Below, in pieces: positions 2,075-20,723 of a stretch of DNA of 39,161 bases. The stretch covers positions 1 through 39,161 of IMG/VR virus record IMGVR_UViG_3300007988_000038. The stretch is one strand, 5' to 3'. The position numbers and the translations under genes are program-made. The stretch is from a virus (lineage: Duplodnaviria > Caudoviricetes). The notes under the pieces are model-generated. The model did not search any database and was not told the origin of the DNA. It was given only the letters and a program-made list of their open reading frames with translations. Numbering within the stretch: position 1 is the stretch's first letter; each line of letters starts with the position of its first letter.

Positions 2075-3604
2075 TTAAATGATTTCACTGAAGTCCGCGC
2101 CTGTGCCGGTCAGAATGAAGTTCAGTTCGATGAATTCCGCTGTCTTGGTCGGCTTGACGAACACCCGGGCAATCATTTCATTGCGATCGATGACCACCGG
2201 CGTGTTGGTTTCTTCATCACACTGGAAGGCGTAATCATAGAGTCCGCCTTTCTCCTTGATGTCCTGCAGGAAGGGATTAATCAAACGACCGAGAGCCCGC
2301 CATGTCTGCGGATTGTTCGGCTCAAACACCACAAAACGGGATGATTCGGAAATGGCTTCCTCCATATACATCATCAGCCGTCTCACGTTGATGCGGTCCA
2401 CTGCAGAGGGTTGGCTCTGGAGTGTTTTCTGGCCCCAGATATTGATTCCGGTATCCGGAAAAACAGCAATGACATTGACCCCTTCAGGGTAAAGCACATC
2501 GCGTTCGCCCCGGCTGGTCTTGTAGGCAACCGACACTGCATTGAATATGCGACCACGGTCGATTCCGGCCGGAGCCCACCAGACATAGGTCTTCTGGTCG
2601 CTTCTCGCACAGCACCCCGCTATAGCGCCACAGGGAGGGATGTATTTCTTGCGGGCGGTAATCGGGTCACTGATCTCCAACCACGGGTAATAGAGAGCCG
2701 CATAGGAAGAATTGAATGCCGCGTGGGTGTAGGTTCCCTGACCTTTTCTGAAGTCGACAACCTCCAGCGGTTCGAGCATGAAGGGCGTGTCGGCGATGAA
2801 GAGCAAATCCTTGCGGTTTTCCGCATAGGTAATCCCGGCGTTAATGACCGGAACAGTTGTCACACCAGGCACCATAAGCAGGTTCAGTGCATCGATCTCA
2901 TCGAATGCATAAAGCCCGGTATGCTGAGACGGGTCGCCGATGTAATCCGAGTCGGTCATGCCGGAGAGACCGTTGCCGCCACCAATTAGCGGGTAACTTC
3001 CAACAGCGGGTCTATCATTTGAAGTCCCTATAGACGGGGACAAATCACTGACCGTGATGTAATCAGAAACCTCATTGACCATAAGTTCCACATGGCTGGT
3101 CAAAACTTCATCCATGGAGAGGTCTTTGAACACCTCTACGATGTTGTCCTTGTATTTGACAATGAGATTGAATGCATTGACCGGGTCCAGAGAACCGTCC
3201 TCGACTGTCACGGAAATACGGTCGCCCCATGTTCCGGGATTAGCTGCGTTGACTTGCAATGTGAGTTCAGGCGTTGACTCTCGATTGGACAGAACGGCAA
3301 CCGAGTTAACAGCACTCAGGGTGCCTTTATCCGTAATGTCGGTATAGTGGGCAACACGGCAGACATAGAGAATCGAACCGCCATTGTCGAAAAAGGCTCT
3401 GGCCGCATAAGCCAGGTATCCTTCGTTGATGTAGGAGCCAAATTTATTGATGAACTGCTCCCAGCTCGTAACCAACACTGGTTTGTTAACCGGGCCTTTT
3501 TGGGTGATTCCCACCATGGCAGCCGCCGAGGTGGAGATCTGCTTTACATAAAAACTGAAGTCTGTTTCCCGTGTATAGATTCCGGGGGATAGATATGCAG
3601 GCAT
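2075..3604 (-). CDS. Contractile tail sheath protein
   Basis: N-terminal YLSPGIYTRE; YAALYYPWL, WWAPAG, IWGQKTL, INVRRL, VFEPN and PTKTAEFI sheath motifs. Confidence 0.95.
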   Translation of the reverse strand: MPAYLSPGIYTRETDFSFYVKQISTSAAAMVGITQKGPVNKPVLVTSWEQFINKFGSYINEGYLAYAARAFFDNGGSILYVCRVAHYTDITDKGTLSAVNSVAVLSNRESTPELTLQVNAANPGTWGDRISVTVEDGSLDPVNAFNLIVKYKDNIVEVFKDLSMDEVLTSHVELMVNEVSDYITVSDLSPSIGTSNDRPAVGSYPLIGGGNGLSGMTDSDYIGDPSQHTGLYAFDEIDALNLLMVPGVTTVPVINAGITYAENRKDLLFIADTPFMLEPLEVVDFRKGQGTYTHAAFNSSYAALYYPWLEISDPITARKKYIPPCGAIAGCCARSDQKTYVWWAPAGIDRGRIFNAVSVAYKTSRGERDVLYPEGVNVIAVFPDTGINIWGQKTLQSQPSAVDRINVRRLMMYMEEAISESSRFVVFEPNNPQTWRALGRLINPFLQDIKEKGGLYDYAFQCDEETNTPVVIDRNEMIARVFVKPTKTAEFIELNFILTGTGADFSEII

Positions 3605-5299: not shown

Positions 5300-5769
5300 C
5301 AGCAATCCTCTTCAAGGCAAATTCCCTGTTCATATATTACCGGTGACAGACCGACGGGGGTGATGATGTAGCCATCCTCGTTGACCTCGGTTCCGGGTTT
5401 CAAGGCGGAGAGTCTTTTCCGGTATTCATCCAGCAGGTCCACTTCGAGTTTGGCCCAGTGTTCAGGTTGCTTTGACTTATCGACCCGCTTGTCGCCGCTG
5501 GAAAAGGAAAAGGCATTGGCTGTGGCAGAGCGCATCACCTGACAGGCATGTATCTGCCCCAGCAACAGGAGCAGTTCCCTGAGTTCTCCGCTGATATCCG
5601 GCAGAATCTGCTCTCCCTCGATGGTGAGAGAAATCTCCGCATCCCGGGACAGCTTAAAAACTGCTTTCCGGACGCATCTCTCCAGTGTCGAATCCACAAA
5701 GAGAGACGCATCCGGATCGGACAGGTCGATACGCAAGTCGGCTATGAGCTCAGGAAGCGTCAACGTCAA
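5299..5769 (-). CDS. Putative head-tail connector
   Basis: LIADLRIDLSD...FSFSSGDKRVD pattern; second gene after the capsid gene. Confidence 0.55.
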   Translation of the reverse strand: MTLTLPELIADLRIDLSDPDASLFVDSTLERCVRKAVFKLSRDAEISLTIEGEQILPDISGELRELLLLLGQIHACQVMRSATANAFSFSSGDKRVDKSKQPEHWAKLEVDLLDEYRKRLSALKPGTEVNEDGYIITPVGLSPVIYEQGICLEEDC

Positions 5770-6109
5770 CCTCCGTAAGACGGCTCTTCAACGCGTCGAT
5801 CACGGTTCTGCGTTTTTCCATTTCCATATAGCCTTTGAGCTTGGCCGGGTCGGCCTCTTCATTGACCTTGGAAATGGCGTCGGTCGCGTTAAGCTTGCTC
5901 AGATCATCATCCTGATCCTGATCCTGCTTGCCCTGAGGAGAAGGCTTGTCAGCTTTCTCTTTGTCGATCTGAATCAGCACGCCAGTTTTCAGGCAGTGTT
6001 TGATCTGATCGGTCTGATCTTCAACAGGTGCGACCTCTCCGGGTAGCAATTTTAGTCCGGCATCCGGAATGATGAGAATGCCGGGGCGAACATTTTTTAT
6101 CGTCAACAT
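5750..6109 (-). CDS. Hypothetical protein after major capsid gene
   Basis: ATG at 6109 with GGAGGA RBS; helical C-terminus (EKRRTVIDALKSRL). Confidence 0.65.
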   Translation of the reverse strand: MLTIKNVRPGILIIPDAGLKLLPGEVAPVEDQTDQIKHCLKTGVLIQIDKEKADKPSPQGKQDQDQDDDLSKLNATDAISKVNEEADPAKLKGYMEMEKRRTVIDALKSRLTEVDVDAS

Positions 6110-6125
6110 GATTCCTCCTTCAGCA

Positions 6126-6995
6126 TTAAACACCAAGTTTCACTCGGGCCAGAATGTCCGGACGGGTAACACCCTGACCGATTTCGGACCAGACCAGCCA
6201 ACCGGTTTTGAAGCGGGTCTTCTGGTCGATGGATTCGGCTTTGAGCTTTTCACGGACTGGCATTTTCCCCACTTCTTCATCCGGAATGATCAGAATTTCA
6301 TCGAGGGGCATGGATGCCGTCAACAGGATGCCTCCGGTGCCGTAATTCTTAACCACACCTTTCTGCCGTAGCTCGAGCTTGGTCTGAGGATCAAGATCCC
6401 AGCCGCGCAGATCGTTGAAACGGCGACCGCGCATGACGATGTATTTCACCGACAGCTCGAGGTCCTCGATGATGGAGATGGCTTCATTGAGGGCTTCCTC
6501 GGTAAGCGTGTTTCCAGCCACTTCAATGGTATTGGCTGCAGGGACTGCCGCCGACAACACAGAGATGGATCTACGGTCCATCTCTTTTCGAATAGCATCG
6601 GATGCACTGGTCTGGATATCCATCAGCGTGCCGATGTTGCCGTTTTTGAGAACGGAAATATCCACCATCGGGTTGGAGTGAATGCGGTTGGTCGGGAATT
6701 CGACTTCATCTTTGCCGATTTCCTGCTCCTGCGCTTCACCGTCCTTACTGATCCAGTGGGCTTTGACGGTCGGCTTTTTCTGATAAAGCGGACGTTCGCC
6801 CTTGGGCAACGTGTGTTTGGTCAGCAGCAGAGAGGAGATTTCCTTGCGCCGGATTTCCTCTTCGATCGGAGCGGCAATTGCAGCAGCCAACGCCTGCATC
6901 CCTTCAGGGGACTCAAGAGCTTCACTCATGAGCCTTGCCATGGTCTCCATGTATTCCTGGCTGTGAATGTTCATTGGGTTGTTCTTCATTTGCAT
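6126..6995 (-). CDS. Major capsid protein (probable HK97 fold)
   Basis: 289 aa, downstream of protease/scaffold and decoration genes; CAGGAG RBS; capsid-like C-terminus. Confidence 0.78.
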   Translation of the reverse strand: MQMKNNPMNIHSQEYMETMARLMSEALESPEGMQALAAAIAAPIEEEIRRKEISSLLLTKHTLPKGERPLYQKKPTVKAHWISKDGEAQEQEIGKDEVEFPTNRIHSNPMVDISVLKNGNIGTLMDIQTSASDAIRKEMDRRSISVLSAAVPAANTIEVAGNTLTEEALNEAISIIEDLELSVKYIVMRGRRFNDLRGWDLDPQTKLELRQKGVVKNYGTGGILLTASMPLDEILIIPDEEVGKMPVREKLKAESIDQKTRFKTGWLVWSEIGQGVTRPDILARVKLGV

Positions 6996-7007
6996 AAGCT
7001 CCTGTGA

Positions 7008-7373
7008 TTAAATAAGCAGTTTGAATTTCAAAACGCCGCTCTGGACGGAAATGGCCTGAGCAATGACATGCTCGTCATTTCCGATGTTTCCACCGGTCAG
7101 CTTACCGGTGGCCGATACCTTCAGGTCATCCCCGGGATTGATCGTCCCTTCGAAGACATCGGTCTCGTACACACCGCCATTGCAGTAGATGCCGGGCATT
7201 TCACCGCCTGCATAATCCCTGATCAGGATGCCGATAGAACGGACCTCCGGATCGGTGTTGACTGAAAACAGATCGTTTCCGACCAGACTCACCAGAAGAC
7301 CAAGCTGGCCATCTCCCTGCATATAGCCGTCACCGTAAGCGAGGCCCCTGTGACATGGATTGATAAAAGACAT
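7008..7373 (-). CDS. Putative capsid decoration / cement protein
   Basis: Gly-rich beta protein (GVYETDVF...PGDDLKVSATGKL) between scaffold and capsid genes. Confidence 0.6.
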   Translation of the reverse strand: MSFINPCHRGLAYGDGYMQGDGQLGLLVSLVGNDLFSVNTDPEVRSIGILIRDYAGGEMPGIYCNGGVYETDVFEGTINPGDDLKVSATGKLTGGNIGNDEHVIAQAISVQSGVLKFKLLI

Positions 7374-7387
7374 AGCGCTTCTCCTTG

Positions 7388-7948
7388 TTAGTTGATTTCC
7401 ACGGTTTCGTTCGATTCGTTACCGACACGGTTGTTGTAGGCAGCCATGAAGCCGGTGCGCAGGCGATCCTCGAGGGAAAGCTTGCGGTCATCCACATCGT
7501 GAGGTCTCACCCCGGCAGAACTGCGCATGGGGGGTTCGCTTGATGCTTTGGATTTGTGTTTTTCAGGCTCTTTTTCCGTTTCCGGCTGCGGCTTGGCATC
7601 CGCCTTGTTGCTTTTGGCCATCTTTTCATAGGCAGCCTCGGTGGCGGCAAAAGCGTCGTCCGACAGTTCAGCTAGACGCGTGAGTTCGTTGTCGCGATCC
7701 TCCCCGAAGTCCATGCCTTGCTTTTCAAGTTTTGAGATCAGTTTGTGAGCACGGGCTTTCGAAGCGGCAGCCTTCTGTTCGGCCTCCAGCTCCTGAATGC
7801 GCTTCTGAAGTTCGGCCACCTGAGCTTTCAACTGGCGGTTTTCCTTTTCCAGCTCGCTCCCGGGAGCCGGATTGTCTTCCTGCCGTTCCTGTTTTTTCTT
7901 AGCGGCGTCGGCGGACGACTCATCTGGTTTCTTGGTTTTTTCGTCCAT
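7388..7948 (-). CDS. Nested in-frame scaffold protein (internal start)
   Basis: AAAGGAGATCCAATT-ATG (MDEKTKK...) in frame, at the start of the coiled-coil region; 186 aa. Confidence 0.65.
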   Translation of the reverse strand: MDEKTKKPDESSADAAKKKQERQEDNPAPGSELEKENRQLKAQVAELQKRIQELEAEQKAAASKARAHKLISKLEKQGMDFGEDRDNELTRLAELSDDAFAATEAAYEKMAKSNKADAKPQPETEKEPEKHKSKASSEPPMRSSAGVRPHDVDDRKLSLEDRLRTGFMAAYNNRVGNESNETVEIN

Positions 7949-9775
7949 AATTGGATCTCCTTTGGGTTGGTGTGGGGCAGATGGGTCCTGAACCGACGCC
8001 ACCTGCAGAATGCGGGCATTTTCATCTGCCCCTTTGCGGTCCAGCAGGCCCAGGCCCGTAAAAGTCACGCCGTGAAGAATCTCGAAGACGGATTTTCCAT
8101 CGAGTTCACGGCCCTTAAATTTTCTGAGGTGGGTGCAGTAATCGGATTTGTTCTTGAAGCGCTTTTTACAAACGGAGCATTCACCTTCCTCGTAATCACA
8201 CTCCATCGATACCTGCGTGATGATGCCTCGTTTCATGAGCTTGTAGGCCAGCTGGGCATTTGGCGTGTCCCCGGTGTAGAGTTCACCGACACATTCGACC
8301 CGACCGCCGATTTCATCTTCCAGATAGTCAGCCGCCACAACTCCACCAACAATGTCACTGAACTCTTGAGAGTGCTGAAGGTCGACTTTCTTGTTGATTG
8401 CGGTCATGTGTCTTCCGGCCAGCTCCTCGGCTGTAAAATGGTCTCCATTTCGGTTGGTGCCGGTTCTGCAAAGAACGAAGGTGAACTGGGGATCGCCCGC
8501 CATACCTCCGCTCATCGCTTCAGCGTTCAGCCCGGAATGCTCATCGAGACACAGCTCCACCGGGATGGATGTGTGGATATTGGCTGCCGCAGCCATCGGA
8601 ACAGGTTTTGCCGACAGATCGGAGTCCGCATGAGACTGGCTTCCTTTCAGACAAACGAAAAGACGTTCTTTCGCGCTGGAAGCCTCCCCATGCTTGGAGG
8701 TGATCGAATACTTATGGTCCTTGGTCTTCATCCGGCTCTGACGTCCCAGACCGCCGATGATCTTTTTCATCTGCTGTTCGTTCGGATAGGCATGATCACG
8801 GTAAGAAATGAGCCAGTGCGGGATATGTGTGGCATTGCCGAGAAATTCCTGAAAGAAGTCGGAGGCGTTGCCCTTGGTGACAGTCACATGGCTGGTTTCA
8901 TAGTTTTTGACCTTGGTATCCGTTTTGATGGTCAGACCGTCCCAATACGTCATCAGTCCTTCGACGAAATGATAGGCTTTTTCATAATTGGTGGTCGAAA
9001 ACTCGGTTGCATAAGGCGGGTCAAAGTACGCGAGGTCAGCCTTCACCTTGGGAAGGATCTCGTTAACATCCCCGCGATAGGCTTTGTTCTCTTTGTCGTT
9101 GTCGAATATCAGGGCGTTGATCCGCTCGATATTGGCCTTCAGGCGTTTTTTGAATTCATCAGGTGTGTCCTGACGCTTGCCGTAATCAGTGGAGGACGAG
9201 AAGTGGCCGAATCCGCCTTTGCCGCTCATGCAGGTTTTCCCAAGAGCAAACAGAGCAATGTCCTTTTTATAGCCGGACAAGTCGTCACAATTGGCTCTCA
9301 GGGAATCGATAAGAGAGTGGACGCCTTTGGCAAAGAAAATCCCTTTAAAATTATCCTGTACAAAGGTTTTCGCTTTTGGGTTGTCAGCCAGCAGCTTGTC
9401 AATCTCGGCTTCGGAAAGTCGTGTCGAACTGTTCTCGACGATGGCTTTGGCTGCGTGATGACTGTAGCGAAGACGGTCATTGGCAAAAACTCGCAGCCCT
9501 TTGGATTTGTACATGTAAGCAACAACGGCCGACCCGGAAAAGGCATCCAGAACAGAGGAAACTCCGTCCGGGGTGTTACGCCAGATCCAGTCGACCAGCT
9601 TCTGTTTGCTGCCGATGTAGTTGGTGATGTACTTGGGGCGTTTCTCCGGGGGCTGCTCTTCAGGAGCCTTCTGTTCGGCTGCATTGGTCCCGATCTCGTC
9701 GGGATCGATTGCGAGCGCCGCATCTGCCTCAAGGAGGAACGCCAGCCTTTCCAGGTCAGTGGCAAACATTTCCAT
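7388..9775 (-). CDS. Fusion of D12-class DNA adenine methyltransferase, prohead protease and scaffold
   Basis: ATG 9775 with GGAG RBS. MTase motifs YIGSKQKL, VLDAFSGSA and AYFDPPY; then phage prohead-protease-like NRNGDHF...DLQH...VSMEC..CSVC..CTH..GADENARI; then a charged coiled-coil scaffold. No stop between the domains. Confidence 0.85.
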   Translation of the reverse strand: MEMFATDLERLAFLLEADAALAIDPDEIGTNAAEQKAPEEQPPEKRPKYITNYIGSKQKLVDWIWRNTPDGVSSVLDAFSGSAVVAYMYKSKGLRVFANDRLRYSHHAAKAIVENSSTRLSEAEIDKLLADNPKAKTFVQDNFKGIFFAKGVHSLIDSLRANCDDLSGYKKDIALFALGKTCMSGKGGFGHFSSSTDYGKRQDTPDEFKKRLKANIERINALIFDNDKENKAYRGDVNEILPKVKADLAYFDPPYATEFSTTNYEKAYHFVEGLMTYWDGLTIKTDTKVKNYETSHVTVTKGNASDFFQEFLGNATHIPHWLISYRDHAYPNEQQMKKIIGGLGRQSRMKTKDHKYSITSKHGEASSAKERLFVCLKGSQSHADSDLSAKPVPMAAAANIHTSIPVELCLDEHSGLNAEAMSGGMAGDPQFTFVLCRTGTNRNGDHFTAEELAGRHMTAINKKVDLQHSQEFSDIVGGVVAADYLEDEIGGRVECVGELYTGDTPNAQLAYKLMKRGIITQVSMECDYEEGECSVCKKRFKNKSDYCTHLRKFKGRELDGKSVFEILHGVTFTGLGLLDRKGADENARILQVASVQDPSAPHQPKGDPIMDEKTKKPDESSADAAKKKQERQEDNPAPGSELEKENRQLKAQVAELQKRIQELEAEQKAAASKARAHKLISKLEKQGMDFGEDRDNELTRLAELSDDAFAATEAAYEKMAKSNKADAKPQPETEKEPEKHKSKASSEPPMRSSAGVRPHDVDDRKLSLEDRLRTGFMAAYNNRVGNESNETVEIN

Positions 9776-9841
9776 TAAATTCTCCGGTTCAATCACTGTT
9801 ATTTGCCCCGATCGCACCGGGCGAGCGGGAGGTTTCAGCGA

Positions 9842-9872
9842 TTACTTACCGGAAGGCTTTGAAATGTGTCGG
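9842..9872 (-). promoter_or_regulatory. Motif copy 2 (upstream of MTase-protease / capsid genes)
   Basis: + strand TTACTTACCGG aaggctttgaaatgt GTCGG. Confidence 0.75.
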
Positions 9873-9888
9873 AAAGGCGTCTGCTTTT

Positions 9889-10242
9889 TTAGGCGGGAAT
9901 CTTCAAAGACCATAAAACGGCAAGACCACAGGCGGTTATGGACGGGTATTCCTCTGTCTCGACCACTTCGGAAAAAGCGCCGTCATAAGGAGATCGGCTC
10001 TGGCGATGATACTCCAGAAAATCATCAGGGAGTGTTGTAACTCCATTCTCAACCAGACGGTTGATGACCCAATCAGCCTGTTCATGACGATCCTGAATGT
10101 CATTTCGGCTGGAGTCCGGATAGAACATCTCAATATCGATGCCCGGGCCGGGACCTTGTACCCAAACACCTACAGGCAGATATTCCGGCACCGCCGCTTT
10201 CGGATCAACAAGGATGGAATCGATCATGTATCTCAGCTTCAT
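9889..10242 (-). CDS. Hypothetical acidic protein (candidate immunity protein for MuF cargo)
   Basis: 117 aa; ATGA-coupled to the upstream gene; second gene after muF. Confidence 0.65.
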   Translation of the reverse strand: MKLRYMIDSILVDPKAAVPEYLPVGVWVQGPGPGIDIEMFYPDSSRNDIQDRHEQADWVINRLVENGVTTLPDDFLEYHRQSRSPYDGAFSEVVETEEYPSITACGLAVLWSLKIPA

Positions 10243-10748
10243 TCCCAGCCCTCCGCAATTTTGATGTGTTCAGCAAGAATCTCTGAATCCATGCGCAGGA
10301 ACATATCCCGATTGTCTTTTCTGAATGCCAGCCATGTTTCCCATTGTTTTGCATGAGCCGGTTCGGAAACGGGCTCGATCATTTCAAGATGATAAATGCG
10401 GTCCAGATCGTCGGTCAGCTCCACAATCAGCCATGCGTTGATTTCACTTCCCTCTGATTGCGCTGTCAGCGCGTCATCTACGGACACATGAACGACCTTG
10501 ATTGTGTGGCTGTAATTGAAGCCTTCCTGATAGCCGAGTTCCTTCCATAACAGCCAGAAATCTGTTCGGATGATTTTCCCAGCGGCATCAAAATGCGGTG
10601 CAATCAGTGTCACCCTGAGTTCTGCGGAAATGGTGTCGATGAAGTTCTCACCGCCATGTTCCCGGATTTGCAACCGGCAGCCACGCTCATTGAACCAATG
10701 AAGCAGTTTCTGGATTCGGGCTTTTTCCGCTGCGATTATTTTCTCCAT
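10239..10748 (-). CDS. Hypothetical protein (candidate immunity protein for MuF cargo)
   Basis: Likely start MEKIIAAE at 10748, 1 bp after the muF stop, with GAGG RBS; the longer start in the ORF track overlaps muF. Confidence 0.65.
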   Translation of the reverse strand: MEKIIAAEKARIQKLLHWFNERGCRLQIREHGGENFIDTISAELRVTLIAPHFDAAGKIIRTDFWLLWKELGYQEGFNYSHTIKVVHVSVDDALTAQSEGSEINAWLIVELTDDLDRIYHLEMIEPVSEPAHAKQWETWLAFRKDNRDMFLRMDSEILAEHIKIAEGWE

Positions 10749-10749
10749 A

Positions 10750-13700
10750 TTATTTCCTCTCATTCCATGTGCTTGACGTATGAATGATGTCTTCCACCTT
10801 ACGGCCGTCAGGAAGTTTCTTGATCCCACGGGATGTGAAGCTCTTGATAATTTTCTGCCGTTCGGAAGCCGAATTGGCCACGATATATTCAATGTTGTCC
10901 AGCAGTGTTACTGAATACTTGAAGATGGTTTCATTGCTGCTTTTGCCCGAAAACTTTTTCCAGTCATCGATATTGTTTCCACGATTCTTCCGGACGTAAT
11001 CATCCACTACTTTGCCATAGGCGTCATGGCCGTAACTGATAGCATCCATGCGCCGTAGCATGCTCTTTTTGAAATAGAGCGCCGGAGAAGCATCACGACT
11101 TGGATTTTTCTGGATACGTGTGAAGAAATAACTGGCACCACCGCTTTGCATATCCGCTACCGGTGACATACCGCCTGGAGGGATACCCATTCGCATTTTT
11201 TCTACGGTGCTGGCCATTGCGCCATTGTTTTCAAGAATGGTTTCAACAAAATCAGACATACCTTCGCTATTGGTCAAGCGATGGACCAGAGAGTAATCCT
11301 TCATTTTCTTTTCCAGATCCTCCTCAGTGATATCGAACCGGTATTGGTGTCGATACCCACCTTTCAAACCACGATCGAGAAATCCGGCCTGATACGCTCC
11401 CATGGGGTCGTAATCCGGCAGCTTGGTAAGGTCCTCGACATTCAGTTCCTTCTGCCAGAAACCACGGAGCGTCTGCACCCGCTCATTTACGGATGCATCG
11501 CGATCGTCGAGCCTTTTTTGAAGCCGCTTGTATTCAGCGGTGTGATCCACTTTTCGAATGTACGCCATTTTTTCCAGATACATCTGCTCGGCATTTTCGG
11601 GGGAAGAAACCCGCGCATCTATCCCGAGTTTCTCCAGTTTGGTCATCAGGGCTTCGACCTTCTTGCCACTGGCATCACCGTCGACCACGATCTCCAGCTC
11701 GCCCCGCTGGGCATAAAGGTTTGAATTATCCCATGGGCGGTATTTCAGACGCGTGCCGTCATCAAATTCAGCGGTGAATTGAAGGCCGTCCTGCATCCTC
11801 GAGTCACGATTGAACATGGCATAATTATCGATGTCATCCATCTCGACGGTTATCTTGCCGCTGCTGATCCGCCTCTTGGTGTGAGTGACCTTGCCTTTAG
11901 TGACCTTGAAATCAGGCTTCTTGGGCTTGGCCGTTTTCGGCAGTTCTGGGAGATACTGCTCTAAGACACCGTTGGTTGCACGGTCCCAGTCGACCGCTTC
12001 TTTGATTTCATCCAGCCATTTGATATAGCCGTCAGCCATCTTTTTGATTTCCGGATCTTTGCTTCGGGCGAGCACAAGCAGTCGGGTTCTCAGTTGTTCG
12101 GCTTTTCCCAATTTTGTCCGGTTATAGTTCCCATCGCCGACATGGAAGTTTACGTTTTTCACTGCATCCAGAATGGTCGGGAAAAAGGTGTCTTCCTCCA
12201 GGGGCTGGCCTTTTTTAATTTCAACAAGGTCCAGCTGTTCCCGAAGCAGGTCCGTGATTTTAGAATCCGTATCCGGCCGGATCTTCATTTTAACAACTGT
12301 GCGCTGCTTACCTTTGAAGGATTCTGTAAATATGAGGGCGTTCTGATCTTCGACATCACCACTGTCAAATGGCAGGGTTTTTCCCTGCCATCCAAGTTTT
12401 CCGGCATCATCGATGATTCTTTCATCCGCTTCCTGCAGCAGCTTCTTTATCCCGGGCTTGGCCTGCAGTGACGAGAACCTGAAGTCTTTCCGGCCTAAAA
12501 CCTCTCCGTAGTATCGCTCGAAATCATTCCGCAGATCATGTTTTCGTTGAAGTGTCTGCTCATAGAATTTATCCAGCCCGATTTTGTCTTTTCCAAAGCG
12601 CCCCTCGGCATATGGCCGGATGATATCGAGATAAGCCTCGTCGGATATTTTTTCGACTTCCTGAATGTATTTCAGGGAGCCCTGAGGATCGAAGTTGACC
12701 TTGCCTTCCTTGGCCGCCCTGAAGACCTTGTTGTAAAAAGGCTCCTCTTCGCCAAAGGCGCTGTTGGGATGATAATCCAGAGAAAGGCGATCTTTCCCGA
12801 GATGCTTGAAAGCCTGCCCCTTGTCAATGCCATAGACATGACCATTTCTTCCCCGGATAAACTGCTTTGAGTGTCCATCATGATTAGCGACAAGCCAGTC
12901 GATGACATGCTCACGCTGTAGCTGTTCGATCTCAACGGTGGTCAGATTCTCCGGCAGTATGTTTTTGAAATCGATTTCTGACTTCAGATCCGTTCGCCAC
13001 TTTTGGATGGAACCTGTTCTGCCGTTCAGCTGGATGGTCCTCACTTCGATTGCGTCCGGGTCAATCAGCCGACCGATCTTGTATGCGGCTTCTTCTCCTT
13101 GGGCGATAAAATTGTCCTTGGAGTTGCTGGCTGGTTTGAACAGCCATTTGTCGCCATTTTCATCGGTCCAAAACTCTTTTTCATGTGCTCCGCCGACATT
13201 CGCCTTGCCGGACTTATTGAATTTCCCGGCTGCGGATTTTTCATTCCATTTCTGATCGGCGCTTTCAAACTCAGAGCCTTTCTGGACAAAGGACGGCGGT
13301 TTGGTTTTGGGTTCAACAGGTGGCTTAGGTGGTTCTTTTTTTTCCTTTACAGGAGATGGCTTCGCCTTTTTGCCACCGTGCTTTTCAGCCCATTTCTGCC
13401 ATTTGCTCTCGATATTCGATTGCGCTTCTCCGATCTTTCCCGGATCGGTTTCGGTAAAGAGCGTGACGAGATCGTCCTTGCTTGCCCATTGCCAGTGTTT
13501 CAGCTGTGTCTCCTTGGCAATGGATTTGAGTTCCGACGATTTGAGTTTGGCAATCTGATCCTGAAAAAGCTGCTTTTTCAGAGCAATTTCCTTGGCGTGC
13601 CCGACAAGCAGTTCCTGAGGCAGATCTTTGGCCGATGCCAGAGCTTTTTCTGCATCGGAGATCTGGCTGATAAAATTGCTGTAATCCAGCGGTGATTCCG

Positions 13701-15321
13701 GAAGCTGAACTCCGGCCGCAGCCTTTTCGACCAGCTCTTTCTGTTTTTTCACCAGGAGCTGTTTTGCTTCATCCGCCGCTATCTTTTTGGCTGATTCAGC
13801 CAGATCCGTTCCGGCTTTTTTCTGCAGTGCATCAACGAGCTGTTGTTTATTCTTCAGGATGCCGATTCCGTACTGCTTTTTCTTTGCCAGCAGTTCCTTT
13901 CCTTTCAGGGATGTGTGGTCAATTCCCGGCTCGAGCTTGTCCAGCAATTTGATGGTCTCCTGTTTGGTCATATTCAGGGAAATGCCGTTGTTTTTGGCCA
14001 TTTCTTTAAGCTGGGATACCGGCATACCCTCGAGTCCTTCCACCTGTGGAAGTTTGGACATCTGCTGGGCAATGAGTTTTGCCTGTTTGAGTTCAGCCTG
14101 CTTTTGAGCCAACAGCCCGATCAGGTCTTCCTTTGTCCGGAGCAGACCGATTTTGTGTTCCTTGAGCTTTGCCTTCAGTCCGGCCCCTGAAAGCGTGCTG
14201 TGGTCAATGCCCGGTTCTGCCTGATCGAGTAGTTTGATGAAGTCGGCTTTGGTGCGGGCAATGGAAATGCCGTTCTCTTTTGAGAGGGTCTGGAGCTGCT
14301 TTACGGTGAGTGCTGTAAGGTCATCGGCGCTTCCGTTCTCAAATGCCTCCTTCAGTTTGATGCTCTCTTTTGCCTGCGCATCCGCCATTCCTTCCAACGC
14401 ATGCGGGGGCAGTATACAGGCATCGCCCTGTGAAGCCTTGGGTGCCGCCTGTGCAGACAGATCGGAACCACAAATGCTCATGGGCCACGCGACAATATTT
14501 GTACAACGGCAATGGGGATGCGCTGGCTGTTGCGGGAATTTATCGATGGGAAATGTCTTACCGTCGAGAGGACCACATACCGGACAGGTTCTCTCGTCAT
14601 TCATGGCCATCCATTCAAGCTTCTGAACGCCGACGCGCTCATGAAATTTAAGCCGCCCCATGTTGTGTGCCCGTAACACCTCAGTCCGGGCAATCATTTC
14701 CATGCGGTACTGAGCCTTGCTGAACACTCGGCTGCCAGCCTGCCTGAAGGAGTCCTTATCGATGATGACCTTGCCAAGGTCGCGGACAATATCATCCGCA
14801 CCTTTACCCGTGGCTATACCGCTCAGGATCGTTCTCTTTATCCCATCCGACAGTTCACGGTGAACATCCCCGGCAAGCGTCAGATTGTATTGCGTCATGA
14901 AGTCGAGGGCATTGGTATCGACTATGGAGAACACCTTGGTGGCCAGTTTATCGATACCTTCAGGCTTCAGGTCGGCATAGAATGGCAGTGACGCGGATGT
15001 CAGTTCGGTAATGCCCTGAGCGATGCCGCCCTTGAAGGCGTCCTTGGTGCTTTTGCGGAAAACAAGCGTCTGGTTCCGCTTTAACTGGCGCAAAACATCA
15101 TCCAGCTCGCCTTGCAGCTTTTCCAGACCTTTCAAAGCTGCCAGCTTGTTGTCCGGCAAAGAGCCGAGAGTGCGATATTTCAAAATGGCCTGCGCAACTT
15201 CCTGTTCAGCCTTGTTGAGAGACTGAGTCAGTTGCGCTGTAATGGAATCGTTGTAGCGATTTCGGGATTTCAGGCTCTTGAGTGTTGCTGCCTGAATGCG
15301 TTCTTTGAGATCAGAAGGCAT
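10750..15321 (-). CDS. MuF (SPP1 gp7-like) minor head protein with HeH repeats, HipA/PI3K-like kinase domain and C-terminal enzyme-like domain
   Basis: MuF motifs IARTEVLRAHN...W...DERTCPVC...PAHPHCRC; repeated LTVKQLQTLSKENGI..TKADFIKLL units; kinase-like GGAHEK..WLFKP..EEAAY..DWLVANHDGH..IDKG. Confidence 0.85.
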   Translation of the reverse strand: MPSDLKERIQAATLKSLKSRNRYNDSITAQLTQSLNKAEQEVAQAILKYRTLGSLPDNKLAALKGLEKLQGELDDVLRQLKRNQTLVFRKSTKDAFKGGIAQGITELTSASLPFYADLKPEGIDKLATKVFSIVDTNALDFMTQYNLTLAGDVHRELSDGIKRTILSGIATGKGADDIVRDLGKVIIDKDSFRQAGSRVFSKAQYRMEMIARTEVLRAHNMGRLKFHERVGVQKLEWMAMNDERTCPVCGPLDGKTFPIDKFPQQPAHPHCRCTNIVAWPMSICGSDLSAQAAPKASQGDACILPPHALEGMADAQAKESIKLKEAFENGSADDLTALTVKQLQTLSKENGISIARTKADFIKLLDQAEPGIDHSTLSGAGLKAKLKEHKIGLLRTKEDLIGLLAQKQAELKQAKLIAQQMSKLPQVEGLEGMPVSQLKEMAKNNGISLNMTKQETIKLLDKLEPGIDHTSLKGKELLAKKKQYGIGILKNKQQLVDALQKKAGTDLAESAKKIAADEAKQLLVKKQKELVEKAAAGVQLPESPLDYSNFISQISDAEKALASAKDLPQELLVGHAKEIALKKQLFQDQIAKLKSSELKSIAKETQLKHWQWASKDDLVTLFTETDPGKIGEAQSNIESKWQKWAEKHGGKKAKPSPVKEKKEPPKPPVEPKTKPPSFVQKGSEFESADQKWNEKSAAGKFNKSGKANVGGAHEKEFWTDENGDKWLFKPASNSKDNFIAQGEEAAYKIGRLIDPDAIEVRTIQLNGRTGSIQKWRTDLKSEIDFKNILPENLTTVEIEQLQREHVIDWLVANHDGHSKQFIRGRNGHVYGIDKGQAFKHLGKDRLSLDYHPNSAFGEEEPFYNKVFRAAKEGKVNFDPQGSLKYIQEVEKISDEAYLDIIRPYAEGRFGKDKIGLDKFYEQTLQRKHDLRNDFERYYGEVLGRKDFRFSSLQAKPGIKKLLQEADERIIDDAGKLGWQGKTLPFDSGDVEDQNALIFTESFKGKQRTVVKMKIRPDTDSKITDLLREQLDLVEIKKGQPLEEDTFFPTILDAVKNVNFHVGDGNYNRTKLGKAEQLRTRLLVLARSKDPEIKKMADGYIKWLDEIKEAVDWDRATNGVLEQYLPELPKTAKPKKPDFKVTKGKVTHTKRRISSGKITVEMDDIDNYAMFNRDSRMQDGLQFTAEFDDGTRLKYRPWDNSNLYAQRGELEIVVDGDASGKKVEALMTKLEKLGIDARVSSPENAEQMYLEKMAYIRKVDHTAEYKRLQKRLDDRDASVNERVQTLRGFWQKELNVEDLTKLPDYDPMGAYQAGFLDRGLKGGYRHQYRFDITEEDLEKKMKDYSLVHRLTNSEGMSDFVETILENNGAMASTVEKMRMGIPPGGMSPVADMQSGGASYFFTRIQKNPSRDASPALYFKKSMLRRMDAISYGHDAYGKVVDDYVRKNRGNNIDDWKKFSGKSSNETIFKYSVTLLDNIEYIVANSASERQKIIKSFTSRGIKKLPDGRKVEDIIHTSSTWNERK

Positions 15322-15323: not shown

Positions 15324-16829
15324 TCAGGATTCCCGGCGGTCAATAAATCGGCAGGCCGGGGAATCGAAGGTGCGCTCGGTGTTGTGTACTCGGCAGCGGT
15401 TGGAATCTGGATTGAAGTGGCTGCATTCATCGCATAAGGAGGTTGCCGCCGTTGCTTCCATTTCCTCGGAATAGTGATGGTGGGCCTCGGTATCGAGATC
15501 GTTACCGTCAGCGGGAATACCGAGCATCTTTCTGGCGCTGGGAACACTCATGATTCCCGACACCACCATATCGACGATCGGCTTCACCTGTTTTTCATCC
15601 ATCAGGTCGATGTTCTTACGCTCGGTCTCACGATTTGCGGCTTCGATGTCCGGGTCCAGATCCATCTTGAGCTGCAAGCTGGAACGGCTGATCAGTTTGC
15701 GATCATACAGCTCGATGAGCAGTTTCTTGAAATCAACGGCATCACTCGGATCAAGGTCATTGAAGATGAATTGCAGGGACTTGTCGCTGTGGCCTTTCAG
15801 TTCCATCCAGTCATCGAAGATCCAGTCGAGCAGTTTTCGTGCGGCCTGTTTGATCTCCCGGATCATGACCATCATTTTCTGCATGCTCACAGAAGCTGTG
15901 GCAAAGTTAGGACCGTCTCCGGTCACCAAGGATCGTGAGAGGCCGAGAGCCACCACAATGTCTTCTTTGACCTCCTTGACCTTGTCCTCGACGTTGAGTA
16001 CCTGGCCATCCGTTCCGTGGGTTTCCACATTCACGTAAAACGGAACCACGAGGCCGCTCTTCATGTCCATCTTGTTGACCATGTCGCGGACCTGTTCCAG
16101 CATCCGCTGGTCGGGCATCACCATCTTTTGACCGAACGCGCCGCCCACTTTGAGGAGTCGGAAGGGAGTCGCCCAGCGCTTTGCAATGGCCTGTTCGGCG
16201 CGACGGTAATCACGCAGCAGTTCAATGGACTGAAACGCGGGCAGTACCAGTGAGTTTCCTCGTGGTGAGAAACCCGGGGCGTCCCATTTCAAATGGATGA
16301 CCTGATCAACCGGAAGGTCGATCGGATCACTGGCAGACCCTGAATCCTCAGCATATTGCATGGCTTCGATAAGTTCGCCCTGAGCATATTTCACCTTCAC
16401 GGAAACCGGATTGACACATACCACTTCCTCGATGTCCTGACCGGAAGCTGCATATCGCTTGAATCCAACAGCATCTCCTTTGACCAGCAGTTGGAGGATC
16501 ATATCTTTTATGAATTCGGAGACATCGAGTCTCCATGCGGCACTGACCGCATCGTTTTTCAGCGTTTCATCATCGCTGGTCATTTTGATTTCATCTCCAA
16601 CCGCAAACGTGCGCCATGAGTTGACACAGTTCTTTACCAGCGGCTCTTCGACGTAGTATTCCCACGCCTTTCTGGCTCGCTCCTCCCATGTGGCCGGGAC
16701 GGCATCCGTCGCGTTGACCTTGCTGAAAGCTGACGCATCGAGGGCAGCGGCAGCGGCCATGGGGACAATAGCGTATCCATTGGATTCGTTTTCCGGCTGC
16801 TCGGTATCTGGCTGGGCGTTTGTATCCAC
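15324..16829 (-). CDS. Portal protein (with C-terminal Cys/His cluster)
   Basis: Between terL and muF; YYVEEPLVKNCVN, VIHLK...RGNS, IVVALG patterns; 501 aa; GTG start with GAGG RBS. Confidence 0.85.
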   Translation of the reverse strand: MDTNAQPDTEQPENESNGYAIVPMAAAAALDASAFSKVNATDAVPATWEERARKAWEYYVEEPLVKNCVNSWRTFAVGDEIKMTSDDETLKNDAVSAAWRLDVSEFIKDMILQLLVKGDAVGFKRYAASGQDIEEVVCVNPVSVKVKYAQGELIEAMQYAEDSGSASDPIDLPVDQVIHLKWDAPGFSPRGNSLVLPAFQSIELLRDYRRAEQAIAKRWATPFRLLKVGGAFGQKMVMPDQRMLEQVRDMVNKMDMKSGLVVPFYVNVETHGTDGQVLNVEDKVKEVKEDIVVALGLSRSLVTGDGPNFATASVSMQKMMVMIREIKQAARKLLDWIFDDWMELKGHSDKSLQFIFNDLDPSDAVDFKKLLIELYDRKLISRSSLQLKMDLDPDIEAANRETERKNIDLMDEKQVKPIVDMVVSGIMSVPSARKMLGIPADGNDLDTEAHHHYSEEMEATAATSLCDECSHFNPDSNRCRVHNTERTFDSPACRFIDRRES

Positions 16830-16945: not shown

Positions 16946-18472
16946 TTAAATAAAGACCGGGTTGGTCAGGACCGGTTTGAGATACACGGTCTCTTCACCG
17001 GCAAAATCGAGGTTGCCTTGCTCCCGAATAAGCATGGCACAGCGAACCGCGTCGATGATGTGGTCGTTCCCTTTGGAGTAGATAATCTTGCCGTCCCGCA
17101 GGGTGTAGGTCTGGGTGGTGAACTGGTCCTCGATTTCCAAATCGTCTGAGGGGAAGATGATCTGTTTGCGCTGAAGGGAACCGTTGATCAGGCTGGTCAT
17201 CAATTCCTTTGTACGCTTTTTGATTTCCTTGCCGTCGCGGACGGTGAGCCGGGTCATGCCGCCGAAGTCAAAGCCTTTCAATCTGCCTTCAAGTTCCAGC
17301 TCTTTGTATTTGTCGAGGGTCAGCAGTTCCTGAACCACGGCCAGACCGTTACCGCCATTGTCCACGCCAATACCAGCCGGGGTGAAATAGCGTTCAAGCA
17401 GCGCTATGGTCTGGGCAATATGCGGATACGACACATGCTCCATATGAATCCGCAGGATAAGTTTCAGGAAACTGCGATCACCCACCTCGGCTTCCTGAAA
17501 AACAACCAGCTCGGTTGGGTCATTTGTATATCCAAGATCGCCACCGATCCAGAACAGCCCGGTGCGAGGAGTGAGGTTGAGCAGCAGTTCGAGCCGGTCA
17601 TAGGCGGCTTCCTCCGTCTCACAATCGCGTAGCTCGGTATCGGTAATGGTGACCTTCTGATATTCCAGCAATTCCTGTCGGCAGAGATTGAACTGCTCGA
17701 CATTGAACGTTCCATAGGAAGGCTTCCCGTGTTCTCCGGCAACCTCATGCTGCCAGCCGGAGGTGTCTTTGCCTCCATAAAATTCCAGCAGCTCTGATTC
17801 ACGTTCGTCAGTCCAGAATGGATTGAACCAAGAGGCCCAGCGGAACACCTTGAACTGTTCCGACATGGTCAGTCGATAGTAAGTCGTGTTTCGCAGACCG
17901 TTGGGAGTGGAGTAGATTTTCAGGCGGCCACCTGTTTTCAGGCATTGCCTGAGCGCCTTCCATGCACGCTCGGAAAGCCACGCGCCTTCATCTACCCAGA
18001 CTCGGTCCACATGAAGTGAGCGGAATGCATCGCCATACGCACCGGCCGGACGGAAATAGATCACCGAGCCATTGGTAAACTCCAGCCGGAAGTATGGCTT
18101 CCGGGTAATTTTAGGTTTGCCGTATTTCGAGAGAGCAATGCTGTTCATCAAATCTTCATTGTGGTCCAGCTGGTACTCTATTTCCTCGATAACTGTATCG
18201 AGATGTCCCTGATGAGGAGCAGCAATCAAACCCCTCCCACCTCGAGTCGTGAAGGCATAGTGCAGTGCATCTGTCGAAAGCACAATCGACTTGCCAACGT
18301 CACGACCATCGAGGTGGACAATGTTTTTATGGGAACACCTGAGGTCTTCCTTCTGGTGCCCCCAGTATGACCGTACCGAACCGTCCCGGTTGTAGAGATA
18401 CGCCTGTCCCCACAAGACCGGGTCACGGAGTGTTTCAGCCAGCCTGCGCTCCTTATCAGAGACACCCATCAA
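16946..18472 (-). CDS. terL: Terminase large subunit
   Basis: Walker A-like GRDVGKS, Walker B VWVDEG, coupling motif YSTP, nuclease motifs GGDLG..DPT and NDHIIDA. Confidence 0.92.
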   Translation of the reverse strand: MMGVSDKERRLAETLRDPVLWGQAYLYNRDGSVRSYWGHQKEDLRCSHKNIVHLDGRDVGKSIVLSTDALHYAFTTRGGRGLIAAPHQGHLDTVIEEIEYQLDHNEDLMNSIALSKYGKPKITRKPYFRLEFTNGSVIYFRPAGAYGDAFRSLHVDRVWVDEGAWLSERAWKALRQCLKTGGRLKIYSTPNGLRNTTYYRLTMSEQFKVFRWASWFNPFWTDERESELLEFYGGKDTSGWQHEVAGEHGKPSYGTFNVEQFNLCRQELLEYQKVTITDTELRDCETEEAAYDRLELLLNLTPRTGLFWIGGDLGYTNDPTELVVFQEAEVGDRSFLKLILRIHMEHVSYPHIAQTIALLERYFTPAGIGVDNGGNGLAVVQELLTLDKYKELELEGRLKGFDFGGMTRLTVRDGKEIKKRTKELMTSLINGSLQRKQIIFPSDDLEIEDQFTTQTYTLRDGKIIYSKGNDHIIDAVRCAMLIREQGNLDFAGEETVYLKPVLTNPVFI

Positions 18473-18747: not shown

Positions 18748-19016
18748 TGTTCATTGTCCTCCGGATTTGTGTTCGCCCAGTTATCCAGTGAATCAATGGC
18801 TTTCTGCAGACGCAGCCCGATTCCGACCAAACGCTCCGCATCCGGGTGGTTGTATTCAACCAGAGCCTTATTTGCTTCCCGGACATATTCCGGGGTGTAG
18901 CGGTTCAGGGTGGATGTGGCCGACTGAATCTGCTCAGGCGGTCTGTACGTGGCGCAGCCAGCAACCATACCGGCCAGCGTCAATGGGATTACCCATTCGA
19001 GTGCTTTCTTTAACAT
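18744..19016 (-). CDS. Small lipoprotein
   Basis: Signal peptide MLKKALEWVIPLTLAGMVAG-C with lipobox VAGC; AAAGGAG RBS. Confidence 0.75.
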   Translation of the reverse strand: MLKKALEWVIPLTLAGMVAGCATYRPPEQIQSATSTLNRYTPEYVREANKALVEYNHPDAERLVGIGLRLQKAIDSLDNWANTNPEDNEQ

Positions 19017-19071
19017 GTTGCGCTCCTTTGATTTAGGGTTGTTTTATTAATGCAGAAAAATCTCTGCAAAC

Positions 19072-19102
19072 ACTTGATTTCCAAGAGGATATAAGCGTCA
19101 TT
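19072..19102 (+). promoter_or_regulatory. Second motif ACTTGATT-N14-AGCGTCATT, upstream of tyrosine recombinase cassette
   Basis: Same boxes and spacing as the minus-strand copy at 35853-35883. Confidence 0.55.
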
Positions 19103-19156
19103 GGACATGACGCGGGACGGTCCCGCAGAACCATAAACCGAAGCAGGAGACGACCC

Positions 19157-19351
19157 ATGAAACAGGTAAAAAACAGTGACGACGCCAGAACCGCCTACAA
19201 AAAGCGCCAGGACAACATTGCTGAGTACATCCAGCGGATTCAGAAGAAGCTGGCCGCAGATGCCGGGCAGGCGAATATCAACTGGGCTCACGTGGGATCG
19301 CTCGGGCACGTCGAAGAGCTGCTCCAGCAGATCGATGAGTTTCTGGGTTAA
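19157..19351 (+). CDS. Small hypothetical protein (INWAHVGSL motif)
   Basis: 64 aa; CAGGAG RBS; first gene of the + strand cassette. Confidence 0.7.
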   Translation: MKQVKNSDDARTAYKKRQDNIAEYIQRIQKKLAADAGQANINWAHVGSLGHVEELLQQIDEFLG

Positions 19352-19384
19352 GGAACCGGCTTCACAAACAAAGGAGTTAATGCC

Positions 19385-19756
19385 ATGACAGAGATGACCA
19401 TTCATGAAACCACTGCCGCCTTCATCAACCATCTTCGGGACAACGGCAAAAAGGAGCGCACGCTCTACACCTACCGGAAGGACCTCGACCTCATCGAGGG
19501 ATACTTCGGCAAGAACAAGATGCTTCAGGAGTTGAGAATCACTCAGGTTGGGAAGTTCCTCAAATGCGATACGCTTCTGAAACTCGGAAATGGTAATGCC
19601 CGGGCCGAGAGAACCGTTGCCAAGACCATCCGGGTCTTTCGGATGATGCTTGTCTGGGCCAAGGAGTCCGGTTTTATCGATGAGCTCCCGCTGCCCAAAA
19701 GCACCCCGATGGGACACAGCAAGCAGACGGAGGTGACCGATGCCGAACAGCAGTGA
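19385..19756 (+). CDS. Stand-alone integrase core-binding (SAM-like) domain protein
   Basis: FINHLRDNGKKERTLYTYRKDL...ERTVAKTIRVFRMMLVWA; no catalytic domain. Confidence 0.75.
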   Translation: MTEMTIHETTAAFINHLRDNGKKERTLYTYRKDLDLIEGYFGKNKMLQELRITQVGKFLKCDTLLKLGNGNARAERTVAKTIRVFRMMLVWAKESGFIDELPLPKSTPMGHSKQTEVTDAEQQ

Positions 19757-20648
19757 TCGACTGGAAGCGGCCATAGAGCGATTCTGTGCCCACTTGTCGG
19801 CCGAAAACAAAGCAGCAGGGACAGTGACCGCATACCGGCGGGATCTGCGACTGGTGGCCTGTGTGGCCGAATCCTTCCAGCTCGGACTCTGCTGCCAAGA
19901 TGTGACACCCGGTCTGCTGGATCGGGCTCTATCCTCACCGCAGCTTTTGACCACGAACTCGGGAACAAGGTCACCGGCATCGATCCACCGTTTGAAAGCG
20001 GCGGTCCGTTCATTCTTTGCATGGACAACGGATGCCGGGCTTACATTTGAAAACCCGGCCCGATCCGTTCGCATGAAAAGGCTGGCGCAGAAGCCGCCGG
20101 TATTCCTGACGGCTTCTGAAAAGAAGGTACTGCTGAAAGAGGTGAAAAGTCGCGTGGGGTTTTCAGACATGAGGGATCGGGTAATGATCGAAGTCCTGCT
20201 CGGAACCGGCATCCGTATCGGTGAGCTGGAATCTCTGGACACGGATGATATTGACCTCGATGCCAAGCATCTGAGAGTCAGAGCCAAGGGGAATGTGGTG
20301 CAGGTCAAGTTCATAAAAACCGACCTCCGCATATTACTGAAAAGGTATCTGAAAGAACGATCCCGGCAAAGCACAGTACAATGCAGCCCACTGTTTCTTT
20401 CCAATAGAGGAACACGTCTTTGCCAGCGGCAGATTGCCAACCGGATAGCCTTGTGGCTGAAGAAGGCTGGTATTGAAAAGAACCTGACTCCGCATGGCCT
20501 GCGGCATACCTTTGCAACCCACCTTTACGGGGCCACCAGTGACCTGCTTGTCGTGCAGAGGGCGCTGGGGCACCGGGATATTTCAACGACTCAAATCTAC
20601 ACCCACCTTGTTGATGGGCAACTCGAGGATGCCCTTGAAAGGCTGTAA
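19740..20648 (+). CDS. XerC/D-family tyrosine recombinase
   Basis: Full catalytic set: GIRIGE (R), AKGN (K), HGLRH, LGH, TTQIY (Y). Confidence 0.93.
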   Translation: MPNSSDRLEAAIERFCAHLSAENKAAGTVTAYRRDLRLVACVAESFQLGLCCQDVTPGLLDRALSSPQLLTTNSGTRSPASIHRLKAAVRSFFAWTTDAGLTFENPARSVRMKRLAQKPPVFLTASEKKVLLKEVKSRVGFSDMRDRVMIEVLLGTGIRIGELESLDTDDIDLDAKHLRVRAKGNVVQVKFIKTDLRILLKRYLKERSRQSTVQCSPLFLSNRGTRLCQRQIANRIALWLKKAGIEKNLTPHGLRHTFATHLYGATSDLLVVQRALGHRDISTTQIYTHLVDGQLEDALERL

Positions 20649-20671
20649 CATCAGTGTTCACCCGAACATCC

Positions 20672-20696: not shown

Positions 20697-20723
20697 CATT
20701 CTCGGGGCGCGTATTCGAATTGC

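Follow-up and report, generated by a model that had tools for sequence, protein, structure and literature searches.

The 39,161-nucleotide viral record IMGVR_UViG_3300007988_000038 (Duplodnaviria; Caudoviricetes), analyzed here over its whole length (the window), contains a single open reading frame (ORF) in which a D12-class DNA methyltransferase (MTase) is joined to a prohead protease and a scaffold. The window also encodes an integrase-type recombinase, a repressor, and replication genes, and its minus strand carries a late region of the contractile-tail type. We propose that the polyprotein would co-assemble into the prohead via its scaffold end, that the protease would cut there after the Ala of a hydrophobic-x-x-x-Ala motif, and that cutting would free a basic 39-kDa adenine MTase, which would stay with the packaged DNA and methylate the viral DNA in cis as a guard against host restriction. 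The enzyme might also be ejected with the genome. On balance, we lean slightly toward this chain of events as a whole.

Three functions in one reading frame

The 795-amino-acid (aa) product consists of a leader, the MTase, the protease, and a scaffold with a nested start, preceded by a Shine-Dalgarno (SD) sequence:

7388..9775, minus strand: whole fusion ORF, 795 aa and 88.5 kDa, in a single uninterrupted frame
9680..9775, minus strand: leader (aa 1-32), with a conserved helix at aa 7-19 and candidate cut sites after A19 and A32
8645..9637, minus strand: D12-class N6-adenine DNA MTase (aa 47-377) of alpha-group motif order; 39 kDa and isoelectric point (pI) 9.2 if cut at A32/378
8492..8644, minus strand: linker of variable sequence plus the propeptide of the protease (aa 378-428); candidate cuts fall after A398 (8596-8582) and A420 (8530-8516)
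7997..8491, minus strand: phage G gp19-like prohead protease (aa 429-593) with the assemblin/T4 gp21 fold and a candidate release site after A593
7388..7963, minus strand: nested scaffold gene, with SD AAAGGAG at 7963-7957 and ATG at 7948 (M610); 186 aa, pI 5.5

An initial annotation had described one frame joining these three functions in the protease slot of the head operon, and both points hold. The leader, the nested scaffold start at 7948, and the recurring motif at the domain borders had escaped it. Locally, the genes run terminase, portal, MuF, two small genes, fusion ORF, a 121-aa gene, and major capsid. To place this arrangement among its relatives, 156 family loci with a protease domain (76 viral and 80 genomic, 145 of them 5'-complete) were drawn from the best 80 of 136 and the best 80 of 123 matches, a sample biased to close relatives; 493 proteins of similar length matched the fusion. 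The order fusion-121aa-capsid is kept in 135 of the 137 loci that have all three genes. The fusion ATG is preceded by GGAG (9785-9782), and an SD-like sequence lies upstream of the full-length start in 135/135 parsed loci. From aa 1 to 795 the protein matches phrog_27806 end to end, a family listed in PHROGs as DNA methyltransferase.

No stop or frameshift separates the domains. A single assembly contig (run X1) covers 6207-12000 with zero differences from the window, and no indel or joint is listed across four sequencing runs, although these DNA runs may be the window's own source. Where viral loci contain both domains, these lie in a single frame without a stop in 74/75, and the whole first MTase is in frame in 140 of the 145 5'-complete ORFs. 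Isolate genomes carry the fusion as well. An assembly artefact or a chance read-through of two genes, for which no support was found beyond a few frameshifted relatives, is refuted by this conservation, and its probability is negligible.

RNA run X15 was considered as expression evidence and rejected, as it covers only scattered pieces, in the form of contigs. An antisense frame of 677 codons (7745-9778, plus strand) overlaps the fusion gene and is probably a shadow of codon use.

The methyltransferase domain

The MTase domain is intact in appearance and under purifying selection; its catalytic activity is predicted. Motif I (VLDAFSGSA, aa 75-83, 9553-9527) precedes DPPY (aa 252-255, 9022-9011), which is the alpha order, and the domain matches Pfam D12 (PF02086; E 7.5e-24, 85 bits against a cut-off of 22) and PADLOC MTase_II (E 4.6e-56). 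Its structural matches have the Dam fold. The sequence falls outside the Dam family proper (TIGR00571, GATC), with 22.5 bits against a cut-off of 114.85. Among the 143 5'-complete MTase-bearing ORFs, motif I is intact in 139 and DPPY in 142, and the ratio of nonsynonymous to synonymous substitutions (dN/dS) over the whole domain is 0.069. This and the other dN/dS values were obtained from 1539 related pairs among 87 sequences; the pairs are not independent.

Conservation of the catalytic motifs bears on the alternative that the domain is a non-catalytic DNA-binding protein or a restriction-enzyme decoy in the head. Head-borne anti-restriction proteins that act by binding do exist (PMC5512222). 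With both motifs and the domain as a whole so well kept, we consider this reading very improbable.

The nearest plasmid-borne cellular relatives of the MTase are about 33% identical. One of them forms the C-terminal half in a tandem MTase adjoining an AlwI-family endonuclease; the identity to the C-terminal half of AlwI-family type IIS tandem MTases is too low to transfer a recognition site, and, unlike in those systems, no endonuclease lies near the fusion. K-mer bias over the whole window yielded no recognition sequence for the MTase. A regular-expression screen of the family loci for other MTases, itself insensitive, returned none. The MTase is basic, whereas the scaffold is acidic.

The protease domain

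The protease belongs to a phage G gp19-like branch and not to the HK97-family profile group. Residues 439-633 match phage G gp19 in a sequence search (E 3e-11), whereas the HK97-family profile TIGR01543 scores 18.7 bits against a cut-off of 59 and PF04586 gives no match; 27 of 62 aligned relatives match the head maturation protease family phrog_18299. A structure predicted from the 62 aligned sequences, with a predicted local distance difference test score (pLDDT) of 87, resembles T4 gp21 (Z 11.2, root-mean-square deviation 2.9 over 129 residues) and the herpesvirus assemblins of VZV (Z 10.8) and HCMV (Z 8.2), with all others far lower (KSHV 6.2, the rest at or below 5.4). Among predicted viral structures, the top match of the model is phage G gp19 (E 2.6e-17), followed by many annotated prohead proteases. 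Foldseek with the protease alone returned assemblins and gp21, none at E<=0.001, and with the whole fusion model it returned MTase matches only. PDB sequence-search matches were rejected as zinc-finger and coiled-coil look-alikes.

The candidate catalytic residues H468 (8374-8372) and S523 (8209-8207) are invariant in 32/32 sequences and conserved in at least 90% of the 62 relatives; both fall within the stretch matching TIGR01543. A zinc-finger insert, CxxC...CxH (residues 533, 536, 547, and 549), is conserved in the protease, for which dN/dS is 0.047. The fusion ORF is the sole protease gene in the window and sits between the portal and capsid genes. Several distant members of the protease family (P0269, P0287, P0302, and P0306) carry inteins or LAGLIDADG inserts.

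A nested scaffold gene

The gene likely yields two products, the polyprotein and a separate, more abundant scaffold. The scaffold has a coiled coil (aa 639-724) and a conserved C-terminal helix (aa 768-784) predicted to bind the capsid, with a candidate maturation site after A754 (7528-7514) between them; dN/dS of the scaffold tail is 0.056. The nested SD is present in 144/145 parsed loci, with GTG or TTG replacing ATG where the residue is Val or Leu; two further loci were unparsed, and the search pattern demanded Gly or Pro upstream, which favors such bases. In 26 diverse loci, the nested SD has 5 to 6 bases (24/25 parsed) and that of the full-length start 4 bases (23/25), in keeping with an excess of scaffold. 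Nested protease-scaffold genes are familiar from lambda (C/Nu3) and Mu (I/Z).

An SD and start in the linker before the protease occur in 5/26 diverse loci against 21/104 control windows, which is background, and the protease is therefore likely made only as the fusion. A third product, protease plus scaffold from M394, was considered and rejected. An SD-like stretch precedes this residue in one over-sampled cluster (45/143 loci); among diverse loci it is at background level, and non-start codons are frequent at this residue.

Candidate cleavage sites

The domains are separated by variable stretches with a recurring hydrophobic-x-x-x-Ala motif, a predicted site of cutting after Ala. It precedes each MTase, each module, the propeptide, the protease, and the scaffold tail, and it also follows the protease. 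Each added cargo module in relatives (a second MTase or a 90-aa module) has its own site, whereas few conserved instances lie in variable stretches within the MTase. Unfused relatives often start at the propeptide strand directly after the A398 site, and phage G gp19 has motif sites immediately before and after its protease domain. Herpesvirus assemblins cut after Ala.

The linker (aa 379-426) is modeled at pLDDT below 50 and evolves at dN/dS 0.22, within the range of 0.22 to 0.39 for linkers across the fusion. Among 12 dereplicated sequences, 92% retain its A398 motif and 83% its A420 motif. Residues 1-20 of the leader, by comparison, have a dN/dS of 0.027 and are the most conserved part of the fusion; the leader helix is present in the model at low pLDDT. 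A role for the leader in targeting or as an inhibitory propeptide may be inferred.

Motif enrichment was assessed in three ways. First, conserved columns with variable flanks number five at spacing 4 against 0 to 1 at spacings 2, 3, 5, 6, and 7 in single-MTase forms, and five against 0 at other spacings in tandem forms. Second, 28 cargo-bearing proteins, of which 25 represent separate 50% clusters, were compared with their shuffled versions, and the motif is enriched before the protease (69 versus 39 in 28 proteins, z 5.4), in the leaders of 17 proteins (z 5.0), and in scaffold linkers (z 3.5, 28 proteins). Third, a motif matrix trained on the polyprotein was applied to 3787 held-out columns of 11 other late proteins, with the terminase excluded for having too few sequences. 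Portal A28 ranked 1st and MuF A292 4th; the motif is present at these positions in 92% of 13 portal sequences and 89% of 19 long MuF forms. In leave-one-out tests, six of the seven polyprotein sites ranked 6 to 8, and A754 ranked 6 of 795.

Distribution among relatives

The 145 5'-complete ORFs comprise 112 with one MTase, 25 with an MTase, a 90-aa module, and a second MTase, 3 with an MTase and the module, 2 with two MTases, and 3 others, so that 27 carry two MTases. The second MTase of the tandem forms is 39% identical, and both resemble the C-terminal half of the AlwI-type tandem MTase. Clustering at 50% identity of matches at E<=1e-30 gave 43 clusters (128 proteins typed overall), of which 19 have D12 in front, down to 46% protease identity, and 7 are fragments. 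Among the weaker matches listed, none of those with a whole protease domain carries an MTase. In a quick tree all MTase forms fall in one branch of 51 rows with cargo-less rows intermixed, and the fusion may have had a single origin with losses.

Record titles of the relatives name Desulfo- taxa, Kiritimatiellales/Pontiella, Phycisphaerae, Nitrospiraceae, Armatimonadota, Acidobacteriota, Hydrogenedentota, and others. Many of the taxon-bearing records are metagenome-assembled genomes and may be mis-binned. Intact-looking copies are present in the isolate or cultured lysogens Desulfosarcina alkanivorans, Desulfatitalea alkaliphila, and Syntrophus buswellii. Proteins of P0074, P0103, and L116, labelled for example Mangrovibacter, Pasteurella multocida, or Rhodospirillaceae, are about as close to the query as the sulfate-reducer copies (76%); these names point either to a very wide host range or to contamination and mis-binning.

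The 90-aa module starts with W-x-E-T-x-N-E-I-R (P0005 398-490; also P0229, P0226, and P0232) and occurs once or twice before the protease, with or without an MTase. It matches no Pfam family, and its Atlas neighbours are unnamed viral proteins (0.89-0.90). Further unnamed modules lie between MTase and protease in P0209-P0211, P0225, and P0238.

Outside this family, one Atlas cluster (65 proteins; score 0.78, a lead only) combines D12 and an unrelated XkdF-type protease. A search for XkdF in 301 genomes gave one match, a ligase-like fusion, and the D12-XkdF fusion was not seen directly. In L165 (1208-4375) and L163, an XkdF-type protease lies behind class I methyltransferase and ATP-dependent ligase-like domains (1055 aa). 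Together with the D12-XkdF cluster, these other enzymes ahead of XkdF proteases suggest that cargo before head proteases is probably a recurring design. By eye, a similar-looking small module lies ahead of the XkdF proteases in L164 and L167.

Proposed mechanism and alternatives

The steps of the proposed chain differ in strength. By analogy, it is quite probable that the fusion enters the prohead, because the scaffold part of herpesvirus UL26 brings it into capsids, where its activation follows (PMC4498786), and because T4 gp21 acts in head assembly. Release of the MTase by cutting is, on similar grounds, probable. Loading of the MTase into the head, as claimed in the initial annotation, follows well from the anatomy of the gene, since this is the only protease gene, no conserved MTase-free protease start was found, and predicted cut sites flank the MTase. 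Retention of the enzyme and its action in cis are marginally favored. Ejection followed by activity in the next cell, the other fate proposed in that annotation, is rather unlikely. Action during packaging and action after ejection are not mutually exclusive, and we rate the two about evenly. The least certain elements are retention of the MTase, the timing of its action, its target sequence, and its anti-restriction purpose.

Several observations weigh against this reading. The cut-motif sites, which share a short pattern rich in Ala, were first picked by eye. In its leave-one-out test A593 ranks only 217 of 795, and in the held-out test columns of the capsid protein, probably helical, rank 2, 3, and 5. 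The spacing control is unspecific in portal and MuF, leaders show as much enrichment at spacing 5 (z 4.8), and in distant propeptides patterns ending in Gly/Ser are as enriched as those ending in Ala. The MTase is broken in 5 of the 145 ORFs. Ten of the 43 closest clusters are without N-terminal cargo, while six carry only the 90-aa module and one another module, and on the poorly resolved quick tree the MTase label needs 14 changes, at least 4 of them forced. Over the whole window, restriction sites are avoided outright, with GCCGGC at 0 versus 18.8 expected, GGATCC at 0 versus 11.3, and GGCGCC at 0 versus 8.1, and with observed/expected (O/E) ratios of 0.19 for CCWGG and 0.12 for CTAG (TCGA is over-represented, O/E 1.5); the MTase is thus not a general shield. 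A late cytoplasmic MTase could also methylate progeny DNA without being packaged.

The same MTase (47.6% identity) is also encoded in locus L231 as a free gene (2280-3404) upstream of the terminase genes, with the protease-scaffold standing alone. This locus is of the same phage lineage (terminase 47%, capsid 44%) and has its portal fused to MuF (5768-8005). The fusion is therefore not needed. That homologs might encode the domains separately, a possibility raised at the outset, is thus true of L231, while most relatives keep the fusion.

Mainly because of L231, we give some weight to the main rival explanation, that the fusion is an expression convenience, although it seems unlikely. Here, the fusion would do no more than couple MTase synthesis to the late head operon, methylation would occur in the cytoplasm (by the fused protein or after early self-cleavage), and copies in the prohead would leave or be degraded with the scaffold. 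The free gene in L231 heads the packaging genes, cargo-less relatives are interspersed on the tree, cut sites would suit disposal as well as release, and late methylation of progeny would require no packaging. A separate gene, however, would allow late expression with no need to attach the enzyme to a protein of low copy number, and the domains stay in frame across clusters whose protease identity falls as low as 46%. Extra modules are also accepted by the slot and bring their own sites, the borders of the MTase bear the motif while few conserved instances lie in variable stretches inside it, and the unrelated XkdF-type protease family may be paired with D12 MTases as well.

Another alternative is confinement for timing, in which a loaded MTase, dense or promiscuous in its methylation and with an inhibitory leader, would be kept off host and replicating DNA, so that only DNA entering the head would be modified and ejection would be unneeded. 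Candidate cut sites lie at the end of the strongly conserved leader, assemblin activation takes place within capsids (PMC4498786), and the tandem forms add a second, divergent MTase. By contrast, the model has no confident contact between leader and MTase (pLDDT about 30 for aa 1-40, from a shallow alignment), the free MTase in L231 indicates that the enzyme is tolerated unfused, and the nearest cellular relatives are site-specific restriction-modification methylases. We regard confinement as improbable.

The proposed loading and release of the MTase could be one case of a broader scheme. The N-terminus of the essential protease-scaffold might be a programmable cargo slot in this prophage family, with modules (an adenine MTase or two, the 90-aa module, and others) ending in Ala cut sites carried at fixed copies per head and freed at maturation; an injected MTase might then act in the new cell on the genome and the earliest copies made from it and help the lineage pass host restriction in several bacterial phyla, and the XkdF fusions would represent a convergent, general strategy. 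This extension is speculative and, in our view, doubtful.

Relation to known systems

Virion-borne methylases and effectors ahead of assemblin peptidases are already known, while the MTase-protease-scaffold architecture was not found in print. In the literature covered, with subscription papers outside its scope, no D12 MTase-protease-scaffold gene was described beyond Iyer et al. 2017, whose Fig. 4A and FTP lists may hold the architecture. These authors described assemblin-like peptidases at the C-termini of phage polyvalent proteins, which likely process them in assembly (PMC5512222). Like the fusion, polyvalent proteins place conflict-enzyme domains N-terminal to a head-maturation peptidase in portal-terminase phages; their MTases are gamma-class NPP(Y/F) enzymes fused to SWI2/SNF2 helicases, whereas the fusion has a D12 domain with DPPY, no helicase, and a scaffold after the peptidase.

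P1 DarB is a methylase-domain protein that is packaged in the head and protects DNA in cis (PMC9024508, PMC5512222). Head packaging, an N-terminal targeting stretch of fewer than 30 residues, and cis protection recall the role suggested for the fusion from its genes. DarB is, however, a separate 250-kDa methylase-helicase that needs other Dar proteins, has an MTase of another class, and is unfused to protease or scaffold. With its alpha-class DPPY and no helicase, the fusion lies outside the DarB-like class (NPP(Y/F) MTase, SWI2/SNF2, and LPD36).

In the herpesvirus UL26/UL26.5 gene, as in the fusion, an assemblin-fold protease is followed by an in-frame scaffold with its own internal start (PMC4498786), and the likeness extends to a candidate release site after the protease and a candidate maturation site before the C-terminal helix. 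The fusion differs by an enzyme of about 380 residues before the protease (up to about 1000 in relatives), extra candidate cut sites, and the zinc-finger insert. T4 gp21, which shares the protease fold, trims propeptides, and the internal proteins and Alt remain in the head and are then ejected (PMC9026906). The T4 internal proteins and Alt and the ejection proteins of phiKZ and SPN3US similarly lose propeptides at a short motif and are left in the head as cargo (PMC9026906, PMC10052503). Proteases of the T4/phiKZ type cut after Glu (L/I-X-E, A-X-E), whereas the motif in the fusion ends in Ala and the cargo is covalently joined to the protease. Phage G gp19 is the closest named relative in sequence and structure and shares the zinc-finger insert and motif positions. 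It is called a head maturation protease in PMC12484599, which is inconsistent on its presence in particles. Unlike the fusion, it is a stand-alone protein of 300 aa with no MTase.

If correct, the proposed mechanism would be a simple, obligatory way to place an enzyme in every capsid, and it predicts a cutting rule for the uncharacterized phage G gp19-type proteases, Ala at P1, as in herpesvirus assemblins and unlike the Glu of T4. It makes testable whether a head-borne methylase acts at packaging or after injection, a question unsettled for P1 DarB in the papers cited above. The cargo slot could also serve as a protein-delivery tool.

Neighboring genes

The other genes of the head operon named above are as follows:

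7008..7373, minus strand: 121-aa gene where a capsid decoration/cement protein would lie (function deduced solely from this position), order conserved
6126..6995, minus strand: HK97-fold major capsid protein, 289 aa (NF042927, E 1e-89; phrog_2522)
10750..15321, minus strand: MuF minor head protein (PF04233, E 2.4e-17) bearing a long extension at its C-terminus, candidate cut site after A292 at the border of MuF domain and extension
15324..16829, minus strand: portal (phrog_2739), with a variable N-terminal tail that ends at the candidate cut site after A28
16946..18472, minus strand: terminase large subunit, by profile matches

Profile searches with the 121-aa gene gave no family matches. A promoter scan of the window found 9 against 12.3 expected. 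Between the primase and the terminase (19010-22638, minus strand) lie five genes without family matches, one of them a 476-aa ORF.

The MuF extension comprises 1230 aa, with weak Rho-N/SAP and kinase-like matches. The two small genes downstream of MuF (9889-10242 and 10239-10751, minus strand) are present in 66/66 loci with a long MuF and 0/23 with a short MuF, as expected for immunity or partner genes of a MuF-borne effector. A small Cys-rich domain forms the end of the portal (15324-15500, minus strand); it follows a variable linker in which a hydrophobic-x-x-x-Ala stretch is often present.

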